Positions 3,779 through 38,687 of a DNA stretch of 64,000 bases are shown here, one piece after another. The stretch's first letter is position 1; each line of letters begins with the position of its first letter. This stretch comes from Patescibacteria group bacterium (lineage in GTDB: Bacteria > Patescibacteriota > UBA1384 > JBAYJO01), in the NCBI GenBank assembly GCA_041665085.1, contig JBAYJO010000001.1, positions 40,671 to 104,670 on the forward strand, in the 5' to 3' direction. The translations under genes were made by a program, and so were the position numbers. The notes beneath the pieces are model-generated. The model was not told where the DNA came from. It did not search any database and was given only the letters and a program-made list of their open reading frames with translations.

Positions 3779-4012
3779 AAGGAGCATTCAAAATCACTTT
3801 CTTTCTAAAAGACACTTTGATGTCCTATCCTGTTTCACAGGCAGGCACAGTTTCTTTTGGAGCGAAACTGATTTTTCATTTCCTTGAAAAAAGAGGAAAA
3901 ATAGACAGGATCTTCACTTTTTTCTGGTTTTAATATAATATAAGGGTGGTTTTGGGCAGAGAACCGAACATAGCCGACGGCGTAAAAGGTCTAGGCAACT
4001 GGGAGGTCTCGA

Positions 4013-4657
4013 ATGTTTGATTTGGTTTCCGATGATGTATACGGGAATTGGCTGACAGCAGCGAGTGAAAAGGTGATCGTCAGGGCACATGAGATAGTGC
4101 ATCAGGAAGTAGATTACTTCACATCGCTGACTGAAATCCACATGTTTACATTGGTGGATCCGACTTGTGTGGTCTGTGCTCATGGTGATACTAATGGGAT
4201 GTTGCTTCCGTTCGTCAATATCTGGCAAGATGACGAGAGTGATACCTTTCGCGGGCAGATTGAGCTGATCTTTGGCACAGGCTTCATACATCGCGGGTTT
4301 TTGGGTCACGGAGTTGATACGGCGAGTGGCTGGACTATCGGTAGGTGGCAATCTGTTGAGCAGGTGCTTTTCGCAAAAGGATCGCCATCTTATTCGGTAA
4401 ACAGTGGTTCGTCTATTCGAGAGAATAACCACTGGGAGCTCTGTGATCCTACTAAGCTGTCAATCTTTCTGCAGGATCTGGCTCGCTTCGAAATGTTTTT
4501 GAGAATGAGCCCAGATCATTTGGTTGGAGGAAATGGTAAGTCTGAACGAAGTTCTGACAAAGAGAAGATCAAGATGCTGTGTCAGCGTTTGTTAGGGTTA
4601 CTGAAGTCCTTGAACGCTGGAGTCGATAGCTCTTGGATGAAACTTGTCAGACAGTGA
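4013..4657 (+). CDS. Hypothetical protein in a GC-rich, probably horizontally acquired segment
   Basis: RBS GGGAGG 6 nt upstream of ATG. Possible TTGAAA...TATAAT promoter near 3885-3938. GC content is far above the flanks. A hairpin AACCTGCC/GGCAGGTT sits directly after the stop. Confidence 0.45.
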   Translation: MFDLVSDDVYGNWLTAASEKVIVRAHEIVHQEVDYFTSLTEIHMFTLVDPTCVVCAHGDTNGMLLPFVNIWQDDESDTFRGQIELIFGTGFIHRGFLGHGVDTASGWTIGRWQSVEQVLFAKGSPSYSVNSGSSIRENNHWELCDPTKLSIFLQDLARFEMFLRMSPDHLVGGNGKSERSSDKEKIKMLCQRLLGLLKSLNAGVDSSWMKLVRQ

Positions 4658-20327: not shown

Positions 20328-20846
20328 ATGTGTATGGAAGATAAGCTTATTTTAGTTAATGAGCAGGATGAAGAGGTTGGAACCGAAGTTAAACTTGAGG
20401 TTCACGAAAAAGGCGCATTACATCGTGCTTTTTCTATTTTGGTTTTCGATTCATCGAAAAAGTTGATTATACAAAAACGGGCGGAAGGGAAGTATCATTC
20501 CGGTGGGCTTTGGGCAAATACTTGCTGCTCTCATCCTAGAGAGGGTGAAAAACTCGATGTGGCTATTCACAGGAGATTAAAAGAAGAAATGGGTTTTGAT
20601 TGTCAGTTGGAAGAAAAATTTTCATTTATATATGAAGTGAAATTAAATGATCTCAAAGAGCATGAATTTGATCATGTTTTTTTTGGTAATTATGATGGTG
20701 AAATTGAGCCTAATCCTAAAGAAGTTTCCGAAATAAAACGGGTGAGCTGGAGCGAATTAAGTCAGGATGTAGAAAAAAACCCAGATCAATATGCATATTG
20801 GTTTAAGATTATTGTTCGAGAGATAAATCAAAGAAAATTTATTTAA
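20328..20846 (+). CDS. idi: Isopentenyl-diphosphate delta-isomerase, type 1 (Nudix fold)
   Basis: WANTCCSHP and RRLKEEMG motifs. Confidence 0.8.
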   Translation: MCMEDKLILVNEQDEEVGTEVKLEVHEKGALHRAFSILVFDSSKKLIIQKRAEGKYHSGGLWANTCCSHPREGEKLDVAIHRRLKEEMGFDCQLEEKFSFIYEVKLNDLKEHEFDHVFFGNYDGEIEPNPKEVSEIKRVSWSELSQDVEKNPDQYAYWFKIIVREINQRKFI

Positions 20847-20993: not shown

Positions 20994-22076
20994 CTAGTAT
21001 TCTCGATATATCATATAGTGAGCAATGCCAAGCAGGAAGTCTTTTCCTTCTGAATTGAGTTCTATTTTTTCTAATGCATCGATTGCCTCATCAACTAATT
21101 TTTTGGCAAAATCCCTAGATTTATCCAATGCTCCGGTTTCAATAATTATTTTTTTTACATCTTCATGGTCTTCATTTGTGATATTTTTATTACCTAGATT
21201 TCTATTTATTATTTCTTTTTGAGCAGGCGAAGCCGATTCAAGAGCGTCAAAAATTAAAAGAGTTTTTTTGCCTTCCCTAATATCTGAAATAACAGGTTTG
21301 CCTATTTTTTCTTCAGAACCAAACATCCCAATTATGTCATCTTGAATTTGAAAAGCGGTGCCCATTGGTATGGTGTATTTTTCAAGATTTGTGATTTGTT
21401 CTTCTGTTGCGCCGGCAAGGATTGCCCCAAGTTTTACCGGTGTGTCAAAGGTATAAGGAGCTGTTTTTAATTCTTGAATCAAAATAATATCTTTTTTTGT
21501 AATATTTTCAGTGATTTGCGTAATTAAATCTAACGCTTCTCCGTAAATTTCTCGTTCATAAGTTTTGTTTAGCTCGGCAATTGCTTTTGATTGATTTTGA
21601 ATGTCAAAATTTGATGTAACTATGATTTCATTTGAATAAGCACAGGCTAAATCGCCAGCTAAAATTGCAATTGAAGTGCCGAAGTGGCGAGGATCAATTT
21701 TATTTTTGTATTTTTCATTGGCAATTTTCTCATAATCAGCGTGAATTGTTGTTTTGCCTCGTCTTAGTGAATCGTTGTCGATAATATCGTCATGAATTAA
21801 GAGAAAAGTTTGAGAGATTTCCATTGCCATTGATGCGTTTAAAGCGGATTTAGTATCTATTCCATCGTGAGCAAGATAACTGTAGTAGGCAAGTGCGGCG
21901 CGAATTCTTTTGCCTCCTCGAAGCGTCATATCTTTCACATGTTCGGCCAGTGCTTCGGCGTGAGGTGAGATATTTTTGGCATTTTCCACTTTTTGAGATA
22001 AAAATTTATCTAATTCAAGATCAATTTTAAGTTTAAAGTCTTGCAGTTGATTTATTGCTGTATTTATCTCGACCAT
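20994..22076 (-). CDS. Polyprenyl diphosphate synthase (FPP/GGPP synthase family)
   Basis: First Asp-rich motif LIHDDIIDND and second FQIQDDIIG. Confidence 0.85.
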   Translation of the reverse strand: MVEINTAINQLQDFKLKIDLELDKFLSQKVENAKNISPHAEALAEHVKDMTLRGGKRIRAALAYYSYLAHDGIDTKSALNASMAMEISQTFLLIHDDIIDNDSLRRGKTTIHADYEKIANEKYKNKIDPRHFGTSIAILAGDLACAYSNEIIVTSNFDIQNQSKAIAELNKTYEREIYGEALDLITQITENITKKDIILIQELKTAPYTFDTPVKLGAILAGATEEQITNLEKYTIPMGTAFQIQDDIIGMFGSEEKIGKPVISDIREGKKTLLIFDALESASPAQKEIINRNLGNKNITNEDHEDVKKIIIETGALDKSRDFAKKLVDEAIDALEKIELNSEGKDFLLGIAHYMIYREY

Positions 22077-22085
22077 ATTTTCCTT

Positions 22086-23864
22086 TTAAATTATTTCTAA
22101 TACTTTTTTGCAAATTCCATTAGCTGTTAAGCCATATTTTTCTCTAAGTTCGTTAATTTCTCCGTGTTCGATGAAATCTTCAATTCCAATTCTTACAACT
22201 TGAGTGTCTTGAATGTTTTGTTTTTGAAGCTCTTCCAAAATTGCGGAGCCAAAACCACCATCTAAAATATTTTCCTCAACAGTGATTATTTTACCGGTTT
22301 TTGCGGCATTTTTTACCATTTCCGAATCAATCGGTTTTACTGACCTGGCGTTATATACTGTTGCGTGGATATCATTCTTTTTAAGTAGATTTGATGCCTC
22401 AATAGCGGGATAGACCATGGATCCGATGGCTAAAATTGCAGCGTTGTTTCCTCGTCTTAACTTTTCTGCTTTTCCGATCTCGAGTTTTTCAAGAGTTCGG
22501 TTCATTGCGCTTCCGATGCCTGTCCCGCGAGGATAGCGAATGGCAATTGGACCTTCAGTGTATTGGGTGGCAGTGTAAAGCATATGCTGGAGTTCGTTTT
22601 CATCTTTTGGCGCCAAAATTATCATATGCGGGATATTTCTTAAATATGACAGGTCAAAAGCTCCGTGATGAGTTGGTCCATCGGATCCAACAAGGCCGGC
22701 TCGGTCAATCGCAAAAATTACTGGAATTTTTTGCAAAGCAACATCATGTAAGATTTGGTCGTAACTTCTTTGAAGAAAAGTGGAGTAAATGGCAACAACC
22801 GGTTTAAATCCTTCAAGCGCCAGGGCGGATGCAAATACAACAGCGTGTTCTTCAGCAATACCAGTATCGAAGAATCTCTCGGGGAATTCAAGAGCGAATT
22901 TATCGATTCCTGTTCCCGCAGGCATGGCTGCGGTTATGGCTATGATTTTTTTATCTTTTTTTGCCAGCTTAATTAAGGTATTGCCAAAGACTTTAGTGTA
23001 GGTTAGTTTTTTGGTGTCTTTGGATGTTTTTCCTGATTCCAAAATAAATGGGCTGGTTGAGTGAAATGCAGGGGGATTGTGTTCGGAGTAGTAATATCCA
23101 AGACCTTTTTTTGTTTCAATATGAATCAGTTTTGGTCCTGGTGTTTCTTGGGCAAGATTAAACACATCAATTAATTGTTTAATGTCGTGCCCATCGATGG
23201 GACCGAAATATTTAAATCCAAGAGAATGAAATATTGATTCAATATCGGTGTGAGGCTCTCCATTCATATGAATAGAGGAAAGTTTTTCCAGATAATTGGC
23301 TATGCCTCCGGTATTTTTTGAGATGGAAAATTTATTATCATTTAAAATTACTGTAAGATCGGTTTCTGTTGAACCAACATTATTTATACCTTCAAAAGTT
23401 AAGCCATTTGTTAGGCTGCCATCCCCGATAATTGCAACAACATGATTTTTTTCTTTTTTTAGATCGCGAGCTTGAGCAAAACCTAGCGCAGCCGAAACAG
23501 CCGTTCCGACATGACCGGCTCCATAGCAGTCGTGCTCGCTTTCTTCTCTTTTCAAATATCCACTTAGCCCGTCTTTTAATCTTAATGTTGAAAATTTTTC
23601 ATATCTTCCGGTGAGTAGTTTGTGTGTGTATGCCTGATGTCCGACATCCCAGACGATTTTATCTTCAGGGGAATTATATGAGTAGTGAAGTGCGATTGTG
23701 AGTTCGACTGTTCCCAAGTTTGGGGCTAAATGGCCACCGTTTTTTGCAACGGTTTTAATAAGGACTGTTCTGATTTCTTCAGATAGTTTTTTTAGCTGGG
23801 TAATCGGTAGCTTCTTTAAGTTTTTCGGACCTTTAATTTTTTTGAGTAAAGATTTTTTAAACAT
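22086..23864 (-). CDS. dxs: 1-deoxy-D-xylulose-5-phosphate synthase
   Basis: TPP-binding GDG region, DVGHQAYTHK, transketolase-like C-terminal domains. Confidence 0.9.
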   Translation of the reverse strand: MFKKSLLKKIKGPKNLKKLPITQLKKLSEEIRTVLIKTVAKNGGHLAPNLGTVELTIALHYSYNSPEDKIVWDVGHQAYTHKLLTGRYEKFSTLRLKDGLSGYLKREESEHDCYGAGHVGTAVSAALGFAQARDLKKEKNHVVAIIGDGSLTNGLTFEGINNVGSTETDLTVILNDNKFSISKNTGGIANYLEKLSSIHMNGEPHTDIESIFHSLGFKYFGPIDGHDIKQLIDVFNLAQETPGPKLIHIETKKGLGYYYSEHNPPAFHSTSPFILESGKTSKDTKKLTYTKVFGNTLIKLAKKDKKIIAITAAMPAGTGIDKFALEFPERFFDTGIAEEHAVVFASALALEGFKPVVAIYSTFLQRSYDQILHDVALQKIPVIFAIDRAGLVGSDGPTHHGAFDLSYLRNIPHMIILAPKDENELQHMLYTATQYTEGPIAIRYPRGTGIGSAMNRTLEKLEIGKAEKLRRGNNAAILAIGSMVYPAIEASNLLKKNDIHATVYNARSVKPIDSEMVKNAAKTGKIITVEENILDGGFGSAILEELQKQNIQDTQVVRIGIEDFIEHGEINELREKYGLTANGICKKVLEII

Positions 23865-24359: not shown

Positions 24360-24704
24360 CTATAGCAATTTACGAAGTTGGTTTGCCAGCTCTGGGAGAT
24401 CTTCTTCAACAACTTTCCAAACCTCATCAACATTCACATAATCGTATTCATGGACTAAGAGATTGCGCATCCCAATTGCTTCCTTAATGGGGAGATCGGG
24501 ATTTTTTTCTCTTAAATCGGTAGATAATTTTTTTGCTGCTTCACCTAAAATTTCCAAATTTCTCATAACAGCGTCTTGTATGAGCTTAGTGTTGGCGAAT
24601 TTTATGTAATCATAACCTTTACAGTATTCAAGAATCTGATCCGTAGCATCTAGCATATCTTTAAGATAAACTTCATCTTTTTTCATATAGAACTTTCGTA
24701 TCAT
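24360..24704 (-). CDS. HepT (HEPN-domain) toxin
   Basis: R-x4-HxY motif RNLLVHEY. Confidence 0.75.
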   Translation of the reverse strand: MIRKFYMKKDEVYLKDMLDATDQILEYCKGYDYIKFANTKLIQDAVMRNLEILGEAAKKLSTDLREKNPDLPIKEAIGMRNLLVHEYDYVNVDEVWKVVEEDLPELANQLRKLL

Positions 24705-24972
24705 TCAAAATATTTTTTTTGATACTTGGTTTAATGTTTTTTCTAGAGACCAGATCGACTGGTCGACCGAGCATTTCCTCTAAATCATATTGGATGCCCC
24801 CAATTTTCATAAGTGATTTAGTTTCTTCGAAATCAACCATTATATCAATATCGCTATCATCTTTCTCTTCTCCACGAGCAAAAGAACCAAAAATTCCAAA
24901 GTAATTAATTTGGTTTTTTTGGCAGTAGTCTTGAAGCTCAATTTTATTGTCGATTAGGAGTTGTTTTTTCAT
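24673..24972 (-). CDS. MntA minimal nucleotidyltransferase antitoxin
   Basis: GSFARGE...SDIDI (GS-x9-13-DxD). Overlaps HepT by 32 nt. Confidence 0.75.
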   Translation of the reverse strand: MKKQLLIDNKIELQDYCQKNQINYFGIFGSFARGEEKDDSDIDIMVDFEETKSLMKIGGIQYDLEEMLGRPVDLVSRKNIKPSIKKNILNDTKVLYEKR

Positions 24973-26673: not shown

Positions 26674-27639
26674 TTACTTCTCTATGATTTGTAGTTTTAG
26701 TTCCAAAAAATTTGTATCTAGTTCTAAGATTTGTTCTTCTTTGTCTTTTATTTTTAGCCAATCTTCAATTAAATGGCATTTTTCTCCTAGAATTTCTTTT
26801 GCGATTTGATACCCCGAAGCGCATGCCGGATACATTCCTTTTCCAGTAAGTCCGGAGGCTAATCCCGCGGCATCACCTGCAAGATAAATATTATCAAATT
26901 TGTATCCTTGATAATCATAGTTTATTATTGACCCAGCGAATTTTCCTTTTGAAATATCAATATTATTTTTTTCAATCCATCTTTTCAAATTTTGAGTTAG
27001 CAATGGTAGGTTGGGGGATTTGTAATCAACTGCTGCTCCGACAGAAGTAAATTTATTATTTGGAAATATCCAAGCATAACCTTTATCAAATAATTGTTCA
27101 TCAACAAACATTTCGAAATCAGGATAAACCTTGGGAATGGTGTAATGGACAGCAGCTATAAATTTTTTTGTTTCGAGGCCAAGGAATTTTCGAACTATTG
27201 AAAATGAGCCGTCAGCACCAATTAAATATTTGAAATTTATTTCTAATCCATTAGCGGTTAGTTTATTTTTTTCAATATTTGTTATTTTTTGACCTAATTT
27301 AATATCAATATTCTTAAATTCAGAAAGTTCGTTTTTAAGTTTATTTAAAAAATCAGGCCTGCAAATTGAAGAGATCAAGCTCTGGTTAGTTGGCATTCTG
27401 TGTTTTTTATTTTTAGTTACGATTACTAGAGGTTTAAGGGAAAAGTTCATGCTTGATTCAGGAATAAATTGTATATCTTCGTCTTCTACGCCATAACCGC
27501 AGGGTTTTAATCCCAGTTCATTATTTTTTTCTAAAACCAAAACGTTTATGTTAGAATTTCCTAGCGCTTTTGCACAGTTTAATCCTGCAAAGCTTGCACC
27601 GATTATTACAATGTCATAAAAGTTTATTATCTTTTGCAT
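26674..27639 (-). CDS. Geranylgeranyl reductase family FAD-dependent oxidoreductase
   Basis: N-terminal FAD fold DIVIIGASFAGLNCA, LVLEKN, GDAAG. Confidence 0.7.
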   Translation of the reverse strand: MQKIINFYDIVIIGASFAGLNCAKALGNSNINVLVLEKNNELGLKPCGYGVEDEDIQFIPESSMNFSLKPLVIVTKNKKHRMPTNQSLISSICRPDFLNKLKNELSEFKNIDIKLGQKITNIEKNKLTANGLEINFKYLIGADGSFSIVRKFLGLETKKFIAAVHYTIPKVYPDFEMFVDEQLFDKGYAWIFPNNKFTSVGAAVDYKSPNLPLLTQNLKRWIEKNNIDISKGKFAGSIINYDYQGYKFDNIYLAGDAAGLASGLTGKGMYPACASGYQIAKEILGEKCHLIEDWLKIKDKEEQILELDTNFLELKLQIIEK

Positions 27640-27912: not shown

Positions 27913-28620
27913 CTATTTAGTCTTTGATTCATTCTCGATCAAAAATGGGTTGAAATTTGTTTTGTCATCAAAAGCGTCTTCCTTTTCCTCTTTTTTCAAA
28001 AAGCTTACAACTCGATAAGTCAAGGGGGTCATGATAACTTCTACACCCGTTTTGAATAAATAATTTGAAATAATAATTGTCAAGACAATGCCTGGGTTAA
28101 GGATTCCAATAAACGCAATACTAACAAAGAGTACAGAATCAACAAGTTCCCCCACTAAAGTCGATCCTATCGTCCTAGTCCATAACCATTTTCCCTTTGT
28201 AAAGACCTTCATCTTCGCCAAAATGTAGCTATTTGTAAATTCTCCAGCCCAGTATGCTATTAATGATGCTAGCACAATACGAGGAACTAAACTGAACAAG
28301 GCTTTAAATGCATCATTCCACTGCCAACTTTCATTTGGCGGAATTGCCGCCACAATAGCAAGCGTAATAGCCATAAGTATTGCCGAGATAAAACCGGTCC
28401 AGATAACCTTGCGTGATCCCGAATATCCGTACACCTCAGTTAATATATCGCCAAAGATATAGGAGAGAGGGAATAGTAATGTGCCACCATCAAATACAAA
28501 AGGGCCAATATTAATAATTTTGGTTGAGGCAATATTGCTGATTAACAGAACAGCTACAAAAAGGCCGGTGATTATAGGAAACCATTTATAATTTTCTAAT
28601 TTTCTTTCAGAGTTCTTCAT
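27913..28620 (-). CDS. Queuosine precursor transporter, YhhQ/COG1738 family
   Basis: Signature FPLSYIFGDILTEVYGY. Polytopic membrane protein. Confidence 0.75.
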   Translation of the reverse strand: MKNSERKLENYKWFPIITGLFVAVLLISNIASTKIINIGPFVFDGGTLLFPLSYIFGDILTEVYGYSGSRKVIWTGFISAILMAITLAIVAAIPPNESWQWNDAFKALFSLVPRIVLASLIAYWAGEFTNSYILAKMKVFTKGKWLWTRTIGSTLVGELVDSVLFVSIAFIGILNPGIVLTIIISNYLFKTGVEVIMTPLTYRVVSFLKKEEKEDAFDDKTNFNPFLIENESKTK

Positions 28621-28689
28621 AATTCATACATTTAATAATTAATATTGTTTAATTTGTATAATCTGGTAGGCTGTTCTAACACGAACAGC

Positions 28690-29385
28690 CTACCATGGAG
28701 ATAGTGGGGAGATGAAGCTCATCGCTTTTTGGACCGTTTCATCGATAGGTTTCTCATTGCACAGAACTATCCAATGAATTGGCTTCACAGAGAACGTTTC
28801 TATTAGTCGATCGAAGCACTCTTTATCGGCAACGTTTTTCTCAGCCATTCCTAGTTGAGTGTTGTCGAAATCAAGTAGGGCTGTTTCTCTGTTCGAGAAC
28901 CTTTCAATCGCCACTTCTGGAGAAGTTTCTAGATATATCAACTTCAAATCAGTGTAGCGGTTCAGTATCCCTAGTAATCTTGGATCCAGATCAGGAACAA
29001 ACTTTCCATTAACAAGCCCTGCTGATTTGCGAAGTGCTTTGGTCCGTCTAATGGAGAAATGTCCGTCAATAAGCAGTAGCTCGCTCTTTGATGCTAAAAA
29101 ACGCATCAGCACGAGCCAAGCGGCTCGTTCAATAAAGTCGTCGTGGTAAGGACCAATCTGATCCCAACCTGAGAGTCCCTCTGTTCCCCCAATCTCGACT
29201 ACGAGTTGACGTTGCTTGGCTGTTAGGCAGCCAGTCATACTTTGTATGACCGAGCATAGTGTTGTTTTGCCGGCACCATGATTACCTCCCACTACTGCTA
29301 CCTGTTTCACGCACAGCACCTCCTTATCTGTGAATACTCCATCTAATATACTAGATACCGAACTTTTGTCAATACAAATCGACAA
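28690..29385 (-). CDS. P-loop NTPase / predicted kinase (AAA_33-like), GC-rich
   Basis: Walker A GGNHGAGKTT. A perfect 12-bp hairpin lies downstream (28654-28684). Confidence 0.5.
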   Translation of the reverse strand: MSICIDKSSVSSILDGVFTDKEVLCVKQVAVVGGNHGAGKTTLCSVIQSMTGCLTAKQRQLVVEIGGTEGLSGWDQIGPYHDDFIERAAWLVLMRFLASKSELLLIDGHFSIRRTKALRKSAGLVNGKFVPDLDPRLLGILNRYTDLKLIYLETSPEVAIERFSNRETALLDFDNTQLGMAEKNVADKECFDRLIETFSVKPIHWIVLCNEKPIDETVQKAMSFISPLSPW

Positions 29386-29395
29386 GCCCTACTTC

Positions 29396-30643
29396 TTATC
29401 TTGAAATGATAATCTCACTAAATCCAGATATATAATTTTTTTCTATATTATACGATGACAGTACCTTGACTTTTTCTTTCTTTTTGACCTCCACAGCTTT
29501 GTTTTTATTGTTCATTATTAATTCGATAAGTTTAATTAGTTCTTTTGTATTGTGTTTACACAAAAAACCATTTTGCCAGTTTTGAATTATGCTTGTGAAG
29601 CATTGGATGTTGCTGTTGATAGTATATAAATCTTTATGAGAAATTAGTACTGCTTCGTTTGGAACAATTGGACTGAAATCTCTAAGTGGCATATTAATCA
29701 AAAATTTTGTGTTAGAGTATCTTAATAGATACTTTGGAAGGTCTGGCTCATAATCAAAAAATAAATAAATTTGTGAATTATCTTTTGCAATTTCTGCAAG
29801 ATTGTTTTGAATTTTTTCAATAAATGCTTCATCGCTAAAACTAGAAGCAATTAAAATTCCTATAAAATCGTCGTGCTTCTTGCAAAACTGAATCATACAA
29901 TTTAAAGAAAAATCCAGTCCTTTATATTCGTCAGCCCTTGCGTATGAAAAAATGATTTTTTTATCGAGAGGGATCTTTTTTTTGGCTAGAAACAATTTAA
30001 TTTGTTGTTTAGTTAATCTGGTGTATTTTTTAAGTTCATTAAAATTTAGACCATTCCTAAACTGAATCACCTTGTTATTGGGGATTGCAAGCTTCTTCTT
30101 TATTATTTCATCAACTGACTTAGATATTGATCCCAGAAAATAATTTGGTAATTTTTTTATTTTTGAGATTGCTTGATCCTCCCAACTACGAAGATCTTTT
30201 TCGTTACAATAACTTTGTTTGTGTACGCCAGCTAAGCTATGAGGAATCCAAACATTAATTAGATTCTTTTGATCCGTTAGAACTCCTGCAAAAATTGAGT
30301 CATTGGCTAAAACTATATTTTCGCCGGAATTATTATCCGAAATATGATGAATAATGCCAATAGCTTCTTTGTTATATTCTTTCCACAAAACCAGATCAAA
30401 ATAAGAGTTATTGAGAGATTTACGTCTTTTAATATAGAAATTATTACTCGAATTTCTTTTTGTGTCAGACAGAGATATTACAAACAAACTCAATAATATT
30501 CCTCGTTTAGCAAAGTAGGCTCTAACGTTAGACCATGACTTTGCAAAGTTTTGCGCAATTGTACCTACCCCGCAACGAGTTTCGGTTATTCCATCTTCGG
30601 TTAGATAGATAATATTAAATAATTTTTTTGAGTTCATCTTCAA
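29396..30643 (-). CDS. GT-B fold glycosyltransferase-like protein
   Basis: C-terminal domain pattern YARADEYKG ... PIVPNEAV is weakly GT4-like. Confidence 0.35.
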   Translation of the reverse strand: MKMNSKKLFNIIYLTEDGITETRCGVGTIAQNFAKSWSNVRAYFAKRGILLSLFVISLSDTKRNSSNNFYIKRRKSLNNSYFDLVLWKEYNKEAIGIIHHISDNNSGENIVLANDSIFAGVLTDQKNLINVWIPHSLAGVHKQSYCNEKDLRSWEDQAISKIKKLPNYFLGSISKSVDEIIKKKLAIPNNKVIQFRNGLNFNELKKYTRLTKQQIKLFLAKKKIPLDKKIIFSYARADEYKGLDFSLNCMIQFCKKHDDFIGILIASSFSDEAFIEKIQNNLAEIAKDNSQIYLFFDYEPDLPKYLLRYSNTKFLINMPLRDFSPIVPNEAVLISHKDLYTINSNIQCFTSIIQNWQNGFLCKHNTKELIKLIELIMNNKNKAVEVKKKEKVKVLSSYNIEKNYISGFSEIIISR

Positions 30644-31175
30644 CTTTTTCTAGTAAATTCACTTTGTCATGTCCTGAGGTAATATAAATAACATTTTTTT
30701 TATTTTTAAAAAATAATTTATAAAAATCACTGCAATGTTTCATTCCTTCTGAACCACTCCATACATCCTCAATTATAGTTTTTCTTGGACGATTAATAAG
30801 GCTGAATTCTGGAGTTTGATTCAAATAAATATAATAATCTGGTTCATATAACTTATGTTCTTTTAGGGCGGTTGCAACCCATTTTTTCTTCTCCTTAAAA
30901 TTTCTGGCCAATTTAAATTTTTCTGCCACATAATCCCAAGCCAACATAGACGGGTACCCTCTATCAATAACTGAATTTTTTCTACTTCTTTGGGCTAGAT
31001 AATATTTTTCCTTTGTTTCTTCAAATATTTTTTCTTGACTATCAGAGATAGCAGACTCGTCTAAATGTCCCAATGACTCATTTACTTTTTCAAAATTAAA
31101 TCGGTCTCGTAGCAAATCTGCAACTGTGGTTTTACCACTAGCCGGAAGACCTTCAATTACGAATATCTTTTTCAT
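30615..31175 (-). CDS. P-loop nucleoside/nucleotide kinase-like protein
   Basis: VIEGLPASGKTT Walker A. Deoxynucleoside-kinase-like layout. Confidence 0.5.
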   Translation of the reverse strand: MKKIFVIEGLPASGKTTVADLLRDRFNFEKVNESLGHLDESAISDSQEKIFEETKEKYYLAQRSRKNSVIDRGYPSMLAWDYVAEKFKLARNFKEKKKWVATALKEHKLYEPDYYIYLNQTPEFSLINRPRKTIIEDVWSGSEGMKHCSDFYKLFFKNKKNVIYITSGHDKVNLLEKVEDELKKII

Positions 31176-31710
31176 TTAGTTGAAGCTCCTTTTCTCCCTT
31201 AACCCTTTTTTCCCAAGGGAATCTAATCCATTTTAAGTGGGGGCAAATAAAAGCCACATAAAGACTAACGCCATAATTTGAAGAAGACATATCAAACTTT
31301 TCGTCAATAACAATGGAGCAGATACCAGTGAGAGTGGATCCGCCTTTCTTAATCTTGGCAATTGCCCCGTCTATTGTCACCCCTTTAAAAATAATATCTT
31401 CTACAATGAGATAACGTTTACCTTTTTTAATTTTTGAGCTCATCCCAGTTTCCACAAACTCGCAGTAATCATGCGGAGTGTTTGAGGCAGTTCTTTTGCC
31501 TTGATAGAAAGATAAATCGCGCTTGACAGTATGATGAGAGATGATTGCAGCGGGAACCATGCCTCCTCGAGCCATAACTAAAATCTCATCAAAAGAAGAA
31601 GCATCAAGAGACTCAATACTCTTCAATACGCCATTAAAAATATTGTCCCAGGAGAGGCAAATCACTTTTGACTTATTGCTCATTAATTTTGGCTTATTTG
31701 CAAATTTCAT
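31153..31710 (-). CDS. Purine phosphoribosyltransferase (type I PRTase)
   Basis: ARGGMVPAAI and PRPP-binding YLIVEDIIFKGVT. Confidence 0.7.
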   Translation of the reverse strand: MKFANKPKLMSNKSKVICLSWDNIFNGVLKSIESLDASSFDEILVMARGGMVPAAIISHHTVKRDLSFYQGKRTASNTPHDYCEFVETGMSSKIKKGKRYLIVEDIIFKGVTIDGAIAKIKKGGSTLTGICSIVIDEKFDMSSSNYGVSLYVAFICPHLKWIRFPWEKRVKGEKELQLNEKDIRN

Positions 31711-32390
31711 TTGTTGATTACTACAAATGCATCAAAACTACCTTTGAAAATGGATACTTTTTTGATGTTATATGTGGCACCTAATTTTTTAATCTTACCC
31801 AAAATATTAATTAGTTTTTTTTCCTCAATGCTAGTGATTTTTCCAACTTTTCTGGTTTTATTAACACCAAAATAGTCATCTTTAGTTTCAACAATAATAT
31901 TAAATAATATGTATTTTTTGCTCATTGAATACATCTTAAAAATATTGTATTCCAAATATTTTTGGAAAAATCTTGTTTTCGAATTTAATCCACCTAAATT
32001 AATTACTAGGTCGTATTGAGCTTTAGGGTTGAAGGAAAGAAAATTTTCCGTTTTAACATCTAGTGAATTATTCTTATTCTTGACATAATTAATAAACTCT
32101 GGCACAATATCAATTCCAGTATACTGAACTTTTTTGTTACATTTGTCTTTATAAAAATAATAGAAATTGCCAGTTCCGCAACCAACATCAAAAATAGAGA
32201 AAACTTTTGCGCAATCAATTATGCCAATTGAGTAATTGAAAAATTTTAGACTGCCCTCCTTATCTCTCCAGTCTAAAGACTTTTCCGAGATGCCTGATTT
32301 TTTTATTCTTGCTTGATAGTAAGAAATTATCTTGTTTGAATCAAGTTGCCATTTTTCTAACAGAATTTTTTTATTCAAATTTTGATTCAT
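31707..32390 (-). CDS. Class I SAM-dependent methyltransferase
   Basis: Motif I DVGCGTGNF. Confidence 0.7.
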   Translation of the reverse strand: MNQNLNKKILLEKWQLDSNKIISYYQARIKKSGISEKSLDWRDKEGSLKFFNYSIGIIDCAKVFSIFDVGCGTGNFYYFYKDKCNKKVQYTGIDIVPEFINYVKNKNNSLDVKTENFLSFNPKAQYDLVINLGGLNSKTRFFQKYLEYNIFKMYSMSKKYILFNIIVETKDDYFGVNKTRKVGKITSIEEKKLINILGKIKKLGATYNIKKVSIFKGSFDAFVVINK

Positions 32391-32513
32391 ATATTAGGAT
32401 TCATATTTTAGTTATTTATACAACAATTAGGGGACTTCGTCAAAGAATTGGAAAACTCTATTTTATTCTTAGCCTTGAAAATGCTATATTGAGATTAAAG
32501 ACAGAATGATTAA

Positions 32514-33635
32514 TTGTTATTTATTATATTTCCAATGAAAAAAGTTAAATCTATATCGGCAGGTGGACTTATCTCTAGAAATTTTCAGGACAGGTTAGAA
32601 CTTCTTTTAATTACAACTCTTGATGGCAAATTGACGATTCCAAAGGGTCACATAATTGGAACTGAGACATTTGAAGAAACTGCTGTCAGAGAAATCAAGG
32701 AAGAAATTGGGCTGAAAGAAGCTGCTGTTACCGGTTCTTTGGGAGATATAACTCGAGATGGTATGGAACCTAGCGGGGAATCCTCATTAAAAGAAATCCA
32801 TTTTTTTCTTATGAAAGGATCTGGTTATACTTATCTTCATGAAGAAGATTATGTTTGGATAGAGTTTGATCGTGCGTTGAAACTTATGCAATGGAAAGAA
32901 GAAAAAGAACTGATTGAAGAGAATAAAAAGAAAATTGCCAAGAATGTCTCTGACTATTTTTCCAAAAGCGATTTATCATTACTGTGGGATAATCAATACG
33001 CCAATTATCAAAAAAGAGATGAATTCGCGTTGAAGCCATATAATATAATAGAAGAAACGCTAAGCAAGCTCACACCTAGCGCTACTATCTTTGAGTTGGG
33101 AACGGCCACAGGGAGAGATGCCCTAACTTTCGCCAAAGCTAAAAAATCTAAAATTTTTGGTATCGATATATCCTTGCACGCCATTTGTAAAATGTGTGAA
33201 AACTTTATGTCTTTTGAGCTAGATCACCTGTTAACAACAAAAGTAATGGATGCAGGAAACATTATTGAATCTGATTTACCAAAAAAAATAGATATATTTT
33301 TTGCCAGATTTGCCTTGAATCTTTCTGATATGAAAACTTTTTTTCTCATCAATGAAATTATAAAAAAAATGCCCATTGGAGGATATGTAATTATTGAGGG
33401 CAAAACCAAACAAGACTATGGTATCCTAGAGGGCAAAAAATTAGGACCAAATGTTTATAGAGATAAACACGGCTTCAATATCAGAACATGGGACGAATCA
33501 TATGTTAATGAATATTTTGTGAAGAAACTCAAGCTAAAATTAGTAAAATATAAAAAAGCTAGCTTTTTATGGGGACAGAACAGGGCCAATGTCGCCTATT
33601 TTGTTCTGCAAAAAACCAGAGAATATTGTTATTGA
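32514..33635 (+). CDS. Nudix hydrolase fused to SAM-dependent methyltransferase
   Basis: Nudix box GHIIGTETFEETAVREIKEEIGL in the N-terminal half. MTase motif I FELGTATG in the C-terminal half. Confidence 0.6.
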   Translation: MLFIIFPMKKVKSISAGGLISRNFQDRLELLLITTLDGKLTIPKGHIIGTETFEETAVREIKEEIGLKEAAVTGSLGDITRDGMEPSGESSLKEIHFFLMKGSGYTYLHEEDYVWIEFDRALKLMQWKEEKELIEENKKKIAKNVSDYFSKSDLSLLWDNQYANYQKRDEFALKPYNIIEETLSKLTPSATIFELGTATGRDALTFAKAKKSKIFGIDISLHAICKMCENFMSFELDHLLTTKVMDAGNIIESDLPKKIDIFFARFALNLSDMKTFFLINEIIKKMPIGGYVIIEGKTKQDYGILEGKKLGPNVYRDKHGFNIRTWDESYVNEYFVKKLKLKLVKYKKASFLWGQNRANVAYFVLQKTREYCY

Positions 33636-33667: not shown

Positions 33668-34516
33668 ATGAAGAAAGTTTTGAAAGTGATTTGGAATGAG
33701 TTTATTTATGGGGGGCATTTGCTTGCTCTGGGACCAGTAGCCATTAATTTATCTGTGATGACTGCTTTAAAATTACCTATCAATTTTTTTATTTTAGTTG
33801 GAGTATATCTTCTATCATATATTGTTTATTTTTTCGATCGAATTCAGGATTATGATTTAGAATCATCTCAATTAAGAAAGGATTTGTATAAATTTCATTT
33901 TAAATATCGTATTTATATTTCTGTAACAGTAGTTATTGCCTTATTATTATCAATGTATGCAGCCAGCATGCAAAGTTTTTATTTGTCTTTACTATTTATT
34001 ATTTTAGGTTTTTTCTACGGTATTTTTTTTAAAAAATTAACTCATATTATAATTGGATTTAAAAGTTTTTTTGTCGCAATTCTTTATTCTGGCACGATTT
34101 TGTTTACTCTTTCAGTCATCCCAACCGTTAATAGTTTTGGGTTAAAGCTGATTCTGATTTTATTCTTTTTTTATTTTATGCGATGGTTTATTAATACATC
34201 TTTTTGTGATGTTAAGGACAGGGAAGTGGACAAGAAAATTGGTTATAAGACTTTGGCTGCAGTTTTAACCAACAGAGTTTTTTTAATAACAATTCATATA
34301 ATTAATCTTTTTTCATTAATGTTTTTAGTTATAATGATTTATTATTTTAAATTACCTTATTATTTATTTGGGTTATCTTTAGTTTTTCCTTTCACTGTCT
34401 TGTATTTAAATTTATATCAAAAACAGTATGATTTACAGAAATTAACAAATATATGGGCTGACGCAGAAGTTATAATTTGGTTATTTGTATCAATAGGAGG
34501 GTTTAAATGGGTTTAA
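33668..34516 (+). CDS. UbiA-family prenyltransferase
   Basis: Polytopic. Asp-rich motifs FFDRIQDYD and DVKDREVDKKIG. Confidence 0.6.
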   Translation: MKKVLKVIWNEFIYGGHLLALGPVAINLSVMTALKLPINFFILVGVYLLSYIVYFFDRIQDYDLESSQLRKDLYKFHFKYRIYISVTVVIALLLSMYAASMQSFYLSLLFIILGFFYGIFFKKLTHIIIGFKSFFVAILYSGTILFTLSVIPTVNSFGLKLILILFFFYFMRWFINTSFCDVKDREVDKKIGYKTLAAVLTNRVFLITIHIINLFSLMFLVIMIYYFKLPYYLFGLSLVFPFTVLYLNLYQKQYDLQKLTNIWADAEVIIWLFVSIGGFKWV

Positions 34517-36373: not shown

Positions 36374-37342
36374 CTAGTCGTAGATTGACCAGCCGAGTTG
36401 TTTGATAGTGTCGGCAGAGATGCTGAGCTTGACGAGCTCGTTCTTACTGATTTTAGCGTCCCCTCCCCAGTCGATGACTTTCCAGCTATCTTTTGCTTTC
36501 TTCAGAAGATATGTCGTATCACCACCATACTGATGTTCTCGGGCGTCAACTACATAGTTTGTAATAGCGGCATAGTCGCCCGCGATCTTCTTCTGTCTGA
36601 ACCGATCTTTGTATGGCGGCGGCGTAATGCTAAACGGTGGAGTACATATGTTGTAGTATTCGACCGTTTCCTCAATCGTGAGTATTCTCTTGCTCTTCAG
36701 CAGTTTGATCCTTGATTGTTCCCAAAGCCGTTCGGATCTTTCGAGAATCTTCACACCACAGGGGTTGGAAAATGCCATATCTTTAGGGTGTATAATAGGT
36801 ATTTCCCAACTACGGGAGCCGTAGACATCGGTTATGTAGTATCGCATTGCTTGTGCTGAAGCTATTTCCGATTCAAGAATCCATTTACCATCAGATGATA
36901 CTTTGTTCACGATGTCGGTGTTAGCATTGATCATTTTCCGTAGCGATGTATAAGATATGCTCAATCCTTTGATCTTTGGTGAAGCATTACCGCACTCTAT
37001 TTCCCAGCAGTTGTCGGCGACCTGCTTCATGTTTGTTCCGTCGATATTGACCGCATAGAGATATCTCTGGCGGCTGTTAACTTCGGAGATGAAGTAAATC
37101 GACTTATTGTCTGGTGAGAAAACAGCTGATTCAATGAGGCAGATTGGACCGGGAAATTTGCCGGTGCAAATGAGCTTGTTGTTTCTGCCGTCTAGGTTAG
37201 AAACTTGCAATTCATCTTTCTGCCACCCAATATCAGGGCTTGAAGTTCTCACGATGTACAGCATTTTTGGGTTTGTTGCATTGGTTGATGATGTTGCGAC
37301 GAGCAATACCAAAGTGACAAAAAACAGGATTCTTTTATTCAA
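36374..37342 (-). CDS. Secreted beta-propeller-like protein (paralog 1), GC-rich
   Basis: Signal peptide. SPDNKSIYFIS and SSDGKW PD40-like repeats. C-terminus LGWSIYD. Confidence 0.55.
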   Translation of the reverse strand: MNKRILFFVTLVLLVATSSTNATNPKMLYIVRTSSPDIGWQKDELQVSNLDGRNNKLICTGKFPGPICLIESAVFSPDNKSIYFISEVNSRQRYLYAVNIDGTNMKQVADNCWEIECGNASPKIKGLSISYTSLRKMINANTDIVNKVSSDGKWILESEIASAQAMRYYITDVYGSRSWEIPIIHPKDMAFSNPCGVKILERSERLWEQSRIKLLKSKRILTIEETVEYYNICTPPFSITPPPYKDRFRQKKIAGDYAAITNYVVDAREHQYGGDTTYLLKKAKDSWKVIDWGGDAKISKNELVKLSISADTIKQLGWSIYD

Positions 37343-37739
37343 GGAACGGTACCTCCGCGAAGTGATGAGTAGATTATATAACTGAATTGTTTATTTTTCA
37401 ATAGGTTGGATTGGTTGTTGGAATGACAAATAGGGTTAAAATGATTGCTATATTTCGTTCGAATGATAATTAGTGTTATTATAAAATTAAGTCTAATACG
37501 GAATAGTATTAAGTATTAAAAAATAGTTTTTAAAATCTATAAAGTCAGAAAGTAACTGGATTCCAGCTTTCCGCCTAGGTTCGGTGAGATTGGTCACTGT
37601 AATGACAGAAGGGAAAAGATTGCCACGGATGACCTCGCAATGACAGAGGGGACTAAAATGGCAAATGAGTTGGAATGTGATAAGAAAATGGTAAGGCCTG
37701 AAGCGGGGAGCTTCAGGCCTTTGGTTTTGTGCGAGCCGG

Positions 37740-38687
37740 CTAGTCGTTGATTGACCAGCCGAGTCGCTTGGCGGTATTGGCAGTGATGTTGAGCTTGCCG
37801 AGCTTCCTCTTGTCGATCCCTGACTCATCGGAGAAGTAAACGACTTTCCAGCTACCCTGTGTTTTCTTGAGCAGGAAAGTCTCTTCTTCACCGATTCGAT
37901 TCCCTCGTGAATCGACCTCCATTCGAGTTATGCTCGCGACATTACCGATCGATTCGCTTTCTTTGAATTCTTCCCTGTTGGGAGAAAGCGGAATCCCGAG
38001 CGCGGATTTGAGAAGGCAGTAGTATTCGACTGCCTCCTCAATGCTGTACGATTTCTTCTTGAGAAGGTAATCGATCTTGGACTTAAGTTGCGCTATGTGC
38101 AACTTGTCCAACGCCTTCTTTCCGCAGGGGTTGAAGAAGCCGATATCTTGCGTCCTCGTTGCGACCGATAGCCATGTCAGTGAACCATTGGTGGCACTGA
38201 CATAATATCGGAGTTGCCCTTTTGGATCGGTCCATTGTTCAGCCATCCAACATCCATCGGGGCTGACCTTGTTCTCGATCCTCGAGCCGACTACCAGCAT
38301 CTTCTGAAGTGAAGCGTAGCTGATAGTTAGACCCTTGATCTTTTGCGGGGAATTTCCCGCTTCGATCTCCCAGCAATTCGCTATCTTTTTCAGCTTCTTG
38401 CCATCAAGTGTTGAGCTGTAGAGGTACTTTTGTCTACTGTTCACGAAGTAGATGAAGTATATCTCTTTGTTGCTAGGCGAAAAAGTGGCTGCTTCAACGT
38501 ATCCCTTTTCGCCATATAACTTGTTTCCGCAGATCGGAAACCAGTTGGTTCCGTCTGGGTTGCATACGACCAGTCTGGTATTATCCCAGCCGGTCCTTTC
38601 GATGAAGAACATCTTCGGCTGGCAGAGCGCTGACCCTGATATAACTATGGTCAGCAGAATGATGAAAAACGTGACTTTTCTGTTCAA
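37740..38687 (-). CDS. Secreted beta-propeller-like protein (paralog 2), GC-rich
   Basis: ~40% identity to 36374-37342 across the full length. C-terminus LGWSIND. Confidence 0.55.
   Translation of the reverse strand: MNRKVTFFIILLTIVISGSALCQPKMFFIERTGWDNTRLVVCNPDGTNWFPICGNKLYGEKGYVEAATFSPSNKEIYFIYFVNSRQKYLYSSTLDGKKLKKIANCWEIEAGNSPQKIKGLTISYASLQKMLVVGSRIENKVSPDGCWMAEQWTDPKGQLRYYVSATNGSLTWLSVATRTQDIGFFNPCGKKALDKLHIAQLKSKIDYLLKKKSYSIEEAVEYYCLLKSALGIPLSPNREEFKESESIGNVASITRMEVDSRGNRIGEEETFLLKKTQGSWKVVYFSDESGIDKRKLGKLNITANTAKRLGWSIND

Follow-up and report, generated by a model that had tools for sequence, protein, structure and literature searches.

The stretch of DNA analysed here (the window) is 64 kb of a 148-kb contig (JBAYJO010000001.1) in a metagenome-assembled genome (MAG) of the Patescibacteria group, or Candidate Phyla Radiation (CPR). 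At its centre are a minus-strand operon of nucleotide-related genes, a transporter gene beyond the operon's end, and a divergent fusion gene. All eight genes of the original prediction are present at the coordinates it gave, and its domain calls hold (ORF list, Pfam and NCBIfam). The first gene of the operon, MT (31,707–32,390), is predicted to encode a class I S-adenosylmethionine (SAM) methyltransferase (Methyltransf_25/31/12/11, motif I). It is followed on the same strand by PRT (31,153–31,710), a divergent type I purine-type phosphoribosyltransferase (PRTase) identified by Pribosyltran and a family profile, and by kin2 (30,615–31,175), a predicted nucleoside or nucleotide kinase with the fold of thymidylate and deoxynucleoside kinases (TMK and dNK; dNK, TMK and PHROG profiles and an AlphaFold model). 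The last two genes are GT (29,396–30,643), a GT-B (GT4-like) glycosyltransferase (Glycos_transf_1, AlphaFold model), and kin1 (28,690–29,385), a second P-loop kinase (AAA_18). The reading frames overlap by 4 nt (MT/PRT), 23 nt (PRT/kin2) and 23–29 nt (kin2/GT). A perfect 13-bp hairpin (28,664–28,695, minus strand) overlaps the stop codon of kin1 and separates these genes from yhhQ (27,913–28,620, minus strand), which encodes a YhhQ/COG1738 transporter (Vut_1, TIGR00697). On the plus strand, NudMT (32,514–33,635, probable ATG start at 32,535) encodes an Ap4A-hydrolase-type Nudix domain fused to a SAM-methyltransferase-fold domain, as judged from a Nudix box and motif I. The AT-rich divergent intergenic region (32,391–32,513) presumably holds the promoters of both the operon and NudMT. 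A scan for sigma-70 promoters and intrinsic terminators performed no better than on shuffled sequences. With Rfam, no riboswitch reached the gathering threshold anywhere in the window, and the divergent promoter region gave no match at E ≤ 10.

The operon and the divergent NudMT gene are one version of a conserved, previously undescribed cassette that occurs mainly in Patescibacteria. When every window protein was compared by tblastn with each of 31 loci (L numbers below), kin2 and GT were found in every cassette locus, kin1 and a Nudix in nearly all, and MT and PRT only in the window lineage, L004/L018, L019 and L015. The core kin2-GT-kin1, nearly always with a Nudix, keeps its gene order across about ten independently diverged loci at 27–55% identity, and recurrence of the same genes in the same order at such identity is far beyond chance. 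The kin2 and GT genes overlap in 9 of 11 loci, by 1–23 nt and most commonly by 4 nt, and the 4-nt overlap of MT and PRT is shared with L004 and L019. In L019, the six functions form a single operon in the order MT-PRT-NudMT-kin2-GT-kin1.

The architecture had been called uncommon in the original prediction, and the survey bears this out. Only 5 cassette loci occur among ~185,000 species genomes (in Falkowbacteria, Parcubacteria, Uhrbacteria, an unclassified Patescibacterium and a 9.5-kb contig binned as Gammaproteobacteria), a metagenome scan added 5 more, and a scan of viral contigs with the GT alignment gave zero matches. Single-sequence searches returned 8 relatives of PRT, and 12 of GT before the score falls from 244 to 52 bits. 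Host genomes range from 33 to 52% GC, and the composition of the cassette matches that of each host. Several copies have IS200- or rve-type transposases at their flanks; this patchy, often insertion sequence (IS)-flanked distribution suggests an accessory trait. Pfam and NCBIfam cover the GT, kinase and PRT subfamilies by generic domains only. PADLOC likewise gave the cassette no system-level match, only generic domain hits (VakA for kin2 at 4e-8, mad2 for the methyltransferases) and nothing for GT, PRT or YhhQ. Searches of a literature library for the gene combination found no paper describing the cassette.

The contig binned as 'uncultured Gammaproteobacteria' (CAZWTD010000027.1; L014, the same as L020) carries a complete HD-NudMT-kin2-GT-kin1 cassette. 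It is probably mis-binned, because all other cassette loci with a named taxon come from Patescibacteria; horizontal transfer is also possible.

The most conserved gene of the cassette is kin2, which always lies directly upstream of GT. A profile search delimits a tight family of ~48 clusters at or above 209 bits, after which the score falls sharply. The window protein matches dNK at 27.0 bits (at the threshold) and TMK at 22 bits in Pfam, and its highest score across the libraries is 50 bits (5.6e-13), for a full-length match to the PHROG thymidylate kinase. An AlphaFold model built from a 49-sequence alignment has a pLDDT of 90.5, and its top 50 Foldseek matches are all TMK, dNK or AK structures (TM 0.68–0.78). 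Closest are the deoxyadenosine kinases of Mycoplasma mycoides (TM 0.78) and Giardia (0.77), followed by thymidylate kinases at ~0.7. Like these enzymes, kin2 has a P-loop, a DR-x-Y-type motif (DRGYPSxLAWDY, resembling the DR(Y)xxSxxAYQ of TMK) and an arginine-rich lid (RRPR). On the strength of this model, kin2 is assigned to the TMK/dNK fold and is predicted to be a nucleoside or nucleotide kinase. A profile search against PDB sequences gave no significant match for either cassette kinase beyond the P-loop (best E for kin2, 0.048). Unlike the housekeeping dTMP kinases, kin2 belongs to a separate family that is always found beside GT, and it scores far below their cutoff (22.5 against 83 bits for TIGR00041); the possibility, raised in the original prediction, that the kinases fall in housekeeping clades is not borne out. 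In L013 (GCA_040960375.1, 83-kb contig), the kin2 orthologue (3,804–4,361) has an in-frame stop (...KKYS*VSHA...) in an otherwise intact cassette, which could reflect a pseudogene, a sequencing error or recoding.

The second kinase, kin1, scores 30.5 bits against AAA_18, has a probable GTG start at 29,310 from gene callers (206 aa), and is a distant paralogue of kin2 (hhalign, 97%). Its orthologue in L014 has weak matches to adenylate kinase and dTMP kinase. At 45.6% GC against ~30% for its neighbours in the window, kin1 might be taken for a recent horizontal acquisition. We rejected this, as the gene is richer in GC than its neighbours in every cassette, by up to 16 points (L004, L010, L011, L013, L014, L015, L019, L022, L023 and L026). 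The high GC content is a property of the gene family.

The GT has the features expected of a GT-B (GT4-like) enzyme, namely two Rossmann-like domains, an Arg/Lys diphosphate motif and an E-x7-E-type acidic pair. Glycos_transf_1 matches its C-terminal half, AlphaFold predicts a two-domain GT-B structure (pLDDT 83), and the probable ATG start at 30,637 gives 413 aa. A hidden Markov model of the family searched against 1.84 billion cluster representatives retrieved 105 at E ≤ 1e-30 and 222 at E ≤ 1e-10. Nearly all are ~430 aa long, and one is from a Nanoarchaeota (DPANN) MAG. The lincomycin S-glycosyltransferase LmbT appears in the profile search at an E of about 0.01. Identity to LmbT, SPS, TreT, BshA, GlgM, OtsA and MshA is only 10–15%, and the genomic partners of these small-molecule enzymes are entirely different. 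From such fold-level neighbours, the cassette enzyme is predicted to act on a small soluble substrate. In the N-terminal domain of the window-lineage GT (residues ~60–70; seen also in P0010), a segment of ~18 residues with the consensus S-x-G-x-R-x-D-L...C....G is missing, although all other close family members have it.

Adjacent, overlapping and sometimes fused, the kinase-fold protein kin2 and the GT-B enzyme are obligate partners. In P0110, a dNK/TMK-like kinase that matches the kin2 profile with 99.5% probability in hhalign is fused to GT. P0171 joins GT to a nucleoside-diphosphate-kinase (NDK) domain, and a Nudix domain is found at the C-terminus of GT in P0020 (L015), P0078-80 and L026. 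These three kinds of fusion show that the nucleotide kinase, GT and Nudix work on one metabolite. A further protein, P0139, has GT fused to an APH-type kinase.

The pairing of a nucleotide kinase with a GT-B glycosyltransferase recalls T-even phages; T4 pairs a dNMP kinase with GT-B glucosyltransferases. The cassette could accordingly act at the level of nucleic acids, either by making a modified (deoxy)nucleotide for DNA or RNA that is glycosylated as in these phages, or in anti-phage or antimetabolite defence through a toxic analogue. The best sequence match of kin2 is to a phage-type thymidylate kinase and its PADLOC hit is to VakA, a label that we could not trace in the literature. PRT matches a phage PRTase family in PHROG, one cassette abuts ribonucleotide reductase, and some of the patchily distributed, IS-flanked loci have toxin–antitoxin or Abi-like genes nearby. 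Weighing all of the evidence, we regard a role at this level as quite improbable.

The Nudix box (G-x5-E-x7-R-E-U-x-E-E-x-G-U) is intact in all 11 cassette Nudix domains. In full-length alignment, their profile is closest to the Aquifex Ap4A hydrolase 3i7u (3.7e-22), then to CT771, Ndx1, Caenorhabditis elegans 1kt9 and human NUDT2. ADP-sugar pyrophosphatases score far lower, and by sequence profile the cassette Nudix is therefore assigned to the Ap4A/ApnA-hydrolase type. It takes three forms: a stand-alone protein inside the operon (L004, L022, L023 and L025), a fusion to GT (L015 and L026), and a fusion to a methyltransferase-fold domain. The last is divergent in the window and lies within the operon in L011, L013, L014, L019, L027 and L029. 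The methyltransferase domain of the window NudMT has ELGTATG and GIDIS motifs. Only the window and L027 keep the G-x-G-x-G of this domain, which has degenerated in L019 and in every type-B cassette. Separately from these genes, the window encodes another stand-alone Nudix ~7 kb from the cassette (20,328–20,846), and the L004 contig has a TehB-like methyltransferase and Nudix pair ~7 kb upstream of its cassette.

Three modules can replace one another upstream of the core, namely the PRTase and methyltransferase pair, an HD hydrolase and a HAD nucleotidase. The HD protein occupies this position in L011, L013, L014 and L029 (52–62% mutual identity) and belongs to the YedJ/YpgQ family (3gw7 at 3.8e-46). 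The HAD hydrolase does so in L023 and L026. Its best named matches in NCBIfam are the YjjG noncanonical pyrimidine nucleotidase and pyrimidine 5'-nucleotidase rather than beta-PGM, and an earlier interpretation of this protein as a sugar-phosphate enzyme was dropped for that reason. A Peptidase_C39_2 gene lies 5–8 kb upstream of three of the HD-type cassettes (L011, L013 and L029, whose HD proteins are ~55–62% identical). Just upstream of the cassette in L029-31 are a radical-SAM/PqqD (SPASM-type) gene, a 54-aa ORF and a major facilitator superfamily (MFS) transporter gene, which together resemble a small locus for ribosomally synthesized and post-translationally modified peptides.

The PRTase of the window scores 28.8 bits against Pribosyltran. 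The original prediction had allowed that it might prove to be a canonical HPRT, and its scores lie far below the family cutoffs both for HGPRTase (TIGR01203, 16.3 against 150 bits) and for XPRT (NF006613, 33.6 against 138). The profile of its family matches the purine PRTase of Pyrococcus horikoshii, 1vdm, at 4.9e-16 over 154 of 181 positions, then 7kl6 and the Sulfolobus enzymes GpT-2 and GpT-1 (4z1o at 1.6e-7, 4trb at 6e-7). Canonical HGPRT and XGPRT match only at the loop that binds phosphoribosyl pyrophosphate (PRPP), at ~3e-4. Judged by these profiles, PRT is neither a canonical HPRT nor an XPRT, and its affinities are with the archaeal, Gpt/1vdm-like (TubE-like) superfamily. An RGG loop and a C-terminal KWIRFPWE are invariant, and the motif EDII[F/Y]xG occurs in all nine family members. 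The acidic pair E104-D105 is kept. Phe108 aligns with the catalytic Asp of 1vdm (DDVSDTG) and GpT-1 (DDITDTG), a position that is Phe or Tyr throughout the family (9/9). In 6-oxopurine PRTases, this Asp acts on the purine N7.

In four orthologues of MT, the DVGCGTG motif I and the GID of motif II are invariant. With motif I and the acidic residue that ends beta-2, MT has the sequence hallmarks of a class I SAM methyltransferase. The atypical active site of PRT, together with its coupling to a bona fide SAM methyltransferase, points to a non-standard base. A homologue of PRT with 44% identity, P0004, occurs at L007 (2,818–8,669) in a different context that lacks kin2 and GT; thus, the PRT family is not confined to the cassette. 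After P0004 come two HD proteins, separated by a 480-aa protein that weakly matches Fic/DOC, and then an 812-aa protein of no known family.

A PRTase, two nucleotide kinases and house-cleaning hydrolases also look like a salvage set, and CPR bacteria depend on salvage. The original prediction allowed that the genes might form a plain purine operon, and we considered a purine or deoxynucleotide salvage operon of a nucleotide-auxotrophic symbiont in which GT and the methyltransferases are unrelated passengers. However, GT is the most faithful partner of kin2, always adjacent, usually overlapping and fused to a related kinase in P0110. The parts of the cassette co-vary with GT and Nudix and are fused to them, and all of its components, PRT included, score far under the cutoffs of the housekeeping families. 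Since only 5 loci occur among ~185,000 species genomes, the cassette cannot be an essential salvage route. Plain salvage is extremely improbable on these grounds.

We hypothesize instead that the cassette builds, phosphorylates, glycosylates and, in the window genome, methylates a non-canonical purine-like nucleotide that serves as a scaffold. This is our preferred interpretation, which we hold tentatively and with somewhat less than even confidence. Nucleotide handling is suggested because every component other than GT belongs to a nucleotide-handling class. From gene content, conservation, order, fusions, folds and catalytic motifs, we infer the substrates, the order of steps and the product as follows. 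The divergent PRTase would use PRPP to convert a purine-like base, perhaps imported by YhhQ, into its 5'-monophosphate, and the translationally coupled MT would methylate the base or nucleotide. The phosphorylation state would then be raised by kin2 and by the adenylate-kinase-like kin1, and the LmbT-like GT-B enzyme, physically coupled to kin2, would add a sugar to the nucleotide. The Ap4A-hydrolase-type Nudix may cut a pyrophosphate linkage and so release or recycle the monophosphate form. In other genomes, a YedJ/YpgQ-type HD or a YjjG-like HAD protein might serve as the entry or exit enzyme in place of the PRTase. Such a pathway would yield a nucleotide or nucleoside bearing a sugar and, in the window genome, a methyl group, for example an exported antimetabolite, a signal or a cofactor.

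Several observations favour a nucleotide scaffold because it accounts for them. These are the atypical PRT and its coupling to a methyltransferase, the three kinds of nucleotide phosphohydrolase, the LmbT-like GT with its precedent for binding a heterocycle, the patchy, IS-associated distribution and the flanking transporters. Transporter genes flank three cassette lineages, namely yhhQ in the window and MFS genes in L019 and L029. The two MFS proteins were also considered as an orthologous conserved partner and rejected, at an identity of only 28%, the generic level for this superfamily. The ToyI protein is a HAD phosphohydrolase in a nucleoside natural-product pathway. Terminal or trimming phosphohydrolases of nucleoside natural products also include the Nudix TubG (PMC6112128) and the YpgQ-like HD protein PenF (PMC11592144). 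Taken together, a PRTase, a Nudix, an HD or HAD phosphatase, a SAM methyltransferase, a GT4-type enzyme and an MFS transporter match the tailoring repertoire of known nucleoside natural products, as in TubE/TubG/TubI (PMC6112128), PenF (PMC11592144) and HuiC/HuiG (bioRxiv 10.64898/2026.04.15.718813). The cassette draws its parts, in divergent form, from well-known superfamilies, and in its logic it is similar to nucleoside-tailoring pathways.

A looser analogy is human thiopurine metabolism, in which HPRT, NMP and NDP kinases, TPMT and NUDT15 act on one base analogue and its nucleotides. It has in common with the cassette a PRTase, two kinase steps, a SAM methyltransferase and a Nudix enzyme. 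However, the human enzymes are not encoded in a gene cluster, include no glycosyltransferase and are unrelated proteins.

Other points weigh against a nucleotide scaffold. To our knowledge, no glycosylated nucleotide product of this kind is known from bacteria, and the substrate is so far predicted from gene content. Known clusters for nucleoside natural products do not have a pair of invariant kinases, and CPR genomes are small, with dedicated secondary metabolism unusual in them. With no sugar-activating nucleotidyltransferase of its own, the cassette must obtain its sugar donor from general metabolism. Methylation cannot be a universal step, because type-B cassettes have no MT and the methyltransferase-fold domain linked to their Nudix lacks the G-x-G-x-G of motif I. 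In addition, the fusions fit equally well with a nucleotide that is the nucleoside diphosphate (NDP) cosubstrate of GT and not its acceptor.

That last possibility amounts to a distinct proposal, in which the cassette supplies NDP to a reversible GT. As in sucrose synthase, TreT or LmbT in reverse, a glycoside and NDP would yield an NDP-sugar and an aglycone. The NDP could be produced by PRT followed by kin2 (base to NMP to NDP), by an HD or Nudix enzyme followed by kin2 (NTP to NMP to NDP), or by NDK or kin1 through interconversion of NTP and NDP. If this were true, an energy-poor symbiont would make activated sugars from scavenged glycosides. The proposal explains the domain fusions neatly, and some loci have sugar-phosphate neighbours (PGM/PMM in L015; a Cof-type phosphatase and an HldC-like adenylyltransferase in L028). 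However, the HAD partner is nearest to YjjG-type nucleotidases, which would drain NDP by converting NMP to nucleoside, and we gave the proposal less weight because of this. Furthermore, the Nudix is of the ApnA-hydrolase rather than the NDP-sugar pyrophosphatase type, and the proposal does not account for the coupling of MT to PRT, the unusual active site of PRT or the neighbouring transporters. Housekeeping NMP kinases are normally present in CPR genomes, and a private source of NDP seems redundant in such a host. We therefore consider NDP supply unlikely.

For the nucleotide scaffold, a more specific version can be drawn up, although we find it doubtful. A compact mobile pathway of Patescibacteria, with GT relatives in DPANN, would start from a non-standard purine-like base obtained by scavenging and turn it into a nucleotide that is both methylated and glycosylated. 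Because the PRTase lacks the N7-directed Asp, this base might be 7-substituted or 7-deaza.

The 7-deazapurine possibility, a special case of the scaffold interpretation, was at the centre of the original prediction. Under this possibility, YhhQ would import preQ0, preQ1 or another 7-deazaguanine, the PRTase would make the nucleotide as TubE or ToyH does, and the kinases, methyltransferase and GT would activate and decorate it in a route independent of tRNA-guanine transglycosylase (TGT). Some evidence is consistent with this. The family call for YhhQ was well founded, as the protein scores 187 bits against Vut_1 (cutoff 27) and 132 bits against TIGR00697, 'queuosine precursor transporter' (cutoff 51). 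Its score against PRK11212, the equivalog of the Escherichia coli type, is 54 bits (cutoff 252). The absence from PRT of an N7-directed Asp is compatible with a base that has no N7. However, APRT, OPRT and UPRT are likewise without that Asp, so its loss is not specific to deazapurines. Known deazapurines are tailored by a PRTase and a Nudix (tubercidin) or by an O-methyltransferase and a GT4 enzyme (huimycin). TubE, a PRTase specific for 7-carboxy-7-deazaguanine (CDG), was aligned by its authors to 4Z1O, which is GpT-2 (PMC6112128). Since 4Z1O is also a top hit here, PRT and TubE share a superfamily neighbourhood, which includes 1vdm among their PDB neighbours.

The transporter itself argues in the other direction. 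Its family, COG1738, is heterogeneous and may transport other purines (PMC5372724). YhhQ adjoins the cassette in the window copies (L001-3) and in L010, at 84–94% identity (GT at least 84% identical), and in none of the roughly ten diverged cassettes, that is, in one of about 11 lineages. The conserved adjacency that the original prediction looked for is therefore lacking, and YhhQ is a lineage-specific neighbour rather than a conserved cassette member. It may still supply a base to PRT in the window lineage.

The region between kin1 and yhhQ points the same way. The 69-nt spacer opens with the perfect hairpin, which is followed by an AT-rich stretch, and an 86-nt segment has a folding energy of -26.6 kcal/mol (z = -6.15). 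In L010 the hairpin is preserved, with an A>G change that retains a G.U pair. It is probably a terminator, an attenuator or a transcript-stabilizing element; having no T-tract, it was missed by the intrinsic-terminator scan. No preQ1 riboswitch was found on the yhhQ leader, even at an Rfam E ≤ 10. In the 64 kb covered, part of a 148-kb contig, no TGT, QueA/F/G/H or CDG/preQ0 core genes were identified by their Pfam domains. Most cassettes have no PRT.

The comparison with known pathways is similarly divided. The tubercidin, toyocamycin and huimycin pathways resemble the cassette in having a small 4Z1O/GpT-like PRTase, a Nudix, an MFS transporter, a SAM methyltransferase and a GT4-type GT-B enzyme around a purine-like scaffold. 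Unlike the cassette, those clusters encode the core that leads from GTP to CDG or preQ0 (GTP cyclohydrolase I, QueD, QueE and QueC), none of which is in the window, and none of them has the two invariant P-loop nucleotide kinases. Their hosts are actinobacteria, whereas the cassette occurs in Patescibacteria and DPANN, and the likeness of PRT to TubE is judged from shared PDB neighbours. Queuosine-precursor salvage by YhhQ and TGT has a COG1738/TIGR00697 transporter in common with the window; its TGT, Que genes and preQ1 riboswitch are not in the window, and the transporter is not a conserved cassette partner. Nothing ties the cassette specifically to 7-deazapurines, and we consider this chemistry very improbable. 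Thus, what stands of the original prediction is a real operon that acts on nucleotides; its specific connection to YhhQ and 7-deazapurines is not supported. The result corrects an attractive annotation transfer, in which a neighbouring YhhQ is taken to imply deazapurine chemistry.

Patescibacteria and DPANN cannot make nucleotides, and the majority of their accessory genes are unassigned. The cassette provides a defined gene set with sharply bounded families. Were its product a glycosylated nucleotide scaffold, it would represent a new class of bacterial nucleotide metabolite, made around a kinase–glycosyltransferase core that has no characterized counterpart. Whether the cassette does this or privately supplies NDP, it would add something new to the nucleotide or sugar metabolism of ultra-small symbionts. 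Its proteins, being small and soluble, make the alternatives directly testable.

The rest of the window is ordinary chromosome, with genes for FtsH, HisRS, DnaX, DnaB, UvrD, type IV pilus components, DXS and a polyprenyl synthase. The cassette has isoprenoid genes on both sides (20,994–23,864, 26,674–27,639 and 33,668–34,516). Those for 1-deoxy-D-xylulose 5-phosphate (DXP) synthase and polyprenyl synthase are upstream, and a geranylgeranyl-reductase-family protein adjoins yhhQ. Directly downstream of NudMT, after a 33-nt gap, is a UbiA-family prenyltransferase gene that overlaps a histidine kinase gene. An isoprenoid or lipid gene region may have received the cassette by insertion.

An overlapping nucleotidyltransferase and HepT-like (MNT-HEPN) toxin–antitoxin pair (24,360–24,972) lies ~3 kb from yhhQ and is followed by several small ORFs without a family match. 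An intein that carries a LAGLIDADG homing-endonuclease domain interrupts the replicative helicase DnaB (50,275–52,908; Pfam DnaB, DnaB_C, Intein_splicing, LAGLIDADG_3, DnaB_C). Two tandem paralogues (36,374–37,342 and 37,740–38,687) encode proteins of ~315–322 aa that have N-terminal signal-like segments and no assigned family. They share long identical motifs, such as NSRQ(R/K)YLY...CWEIE.GN..PKIKGL.ISY.SL, and their region (36,374–38,687) has 42% GC against a window mean of 34.5%.

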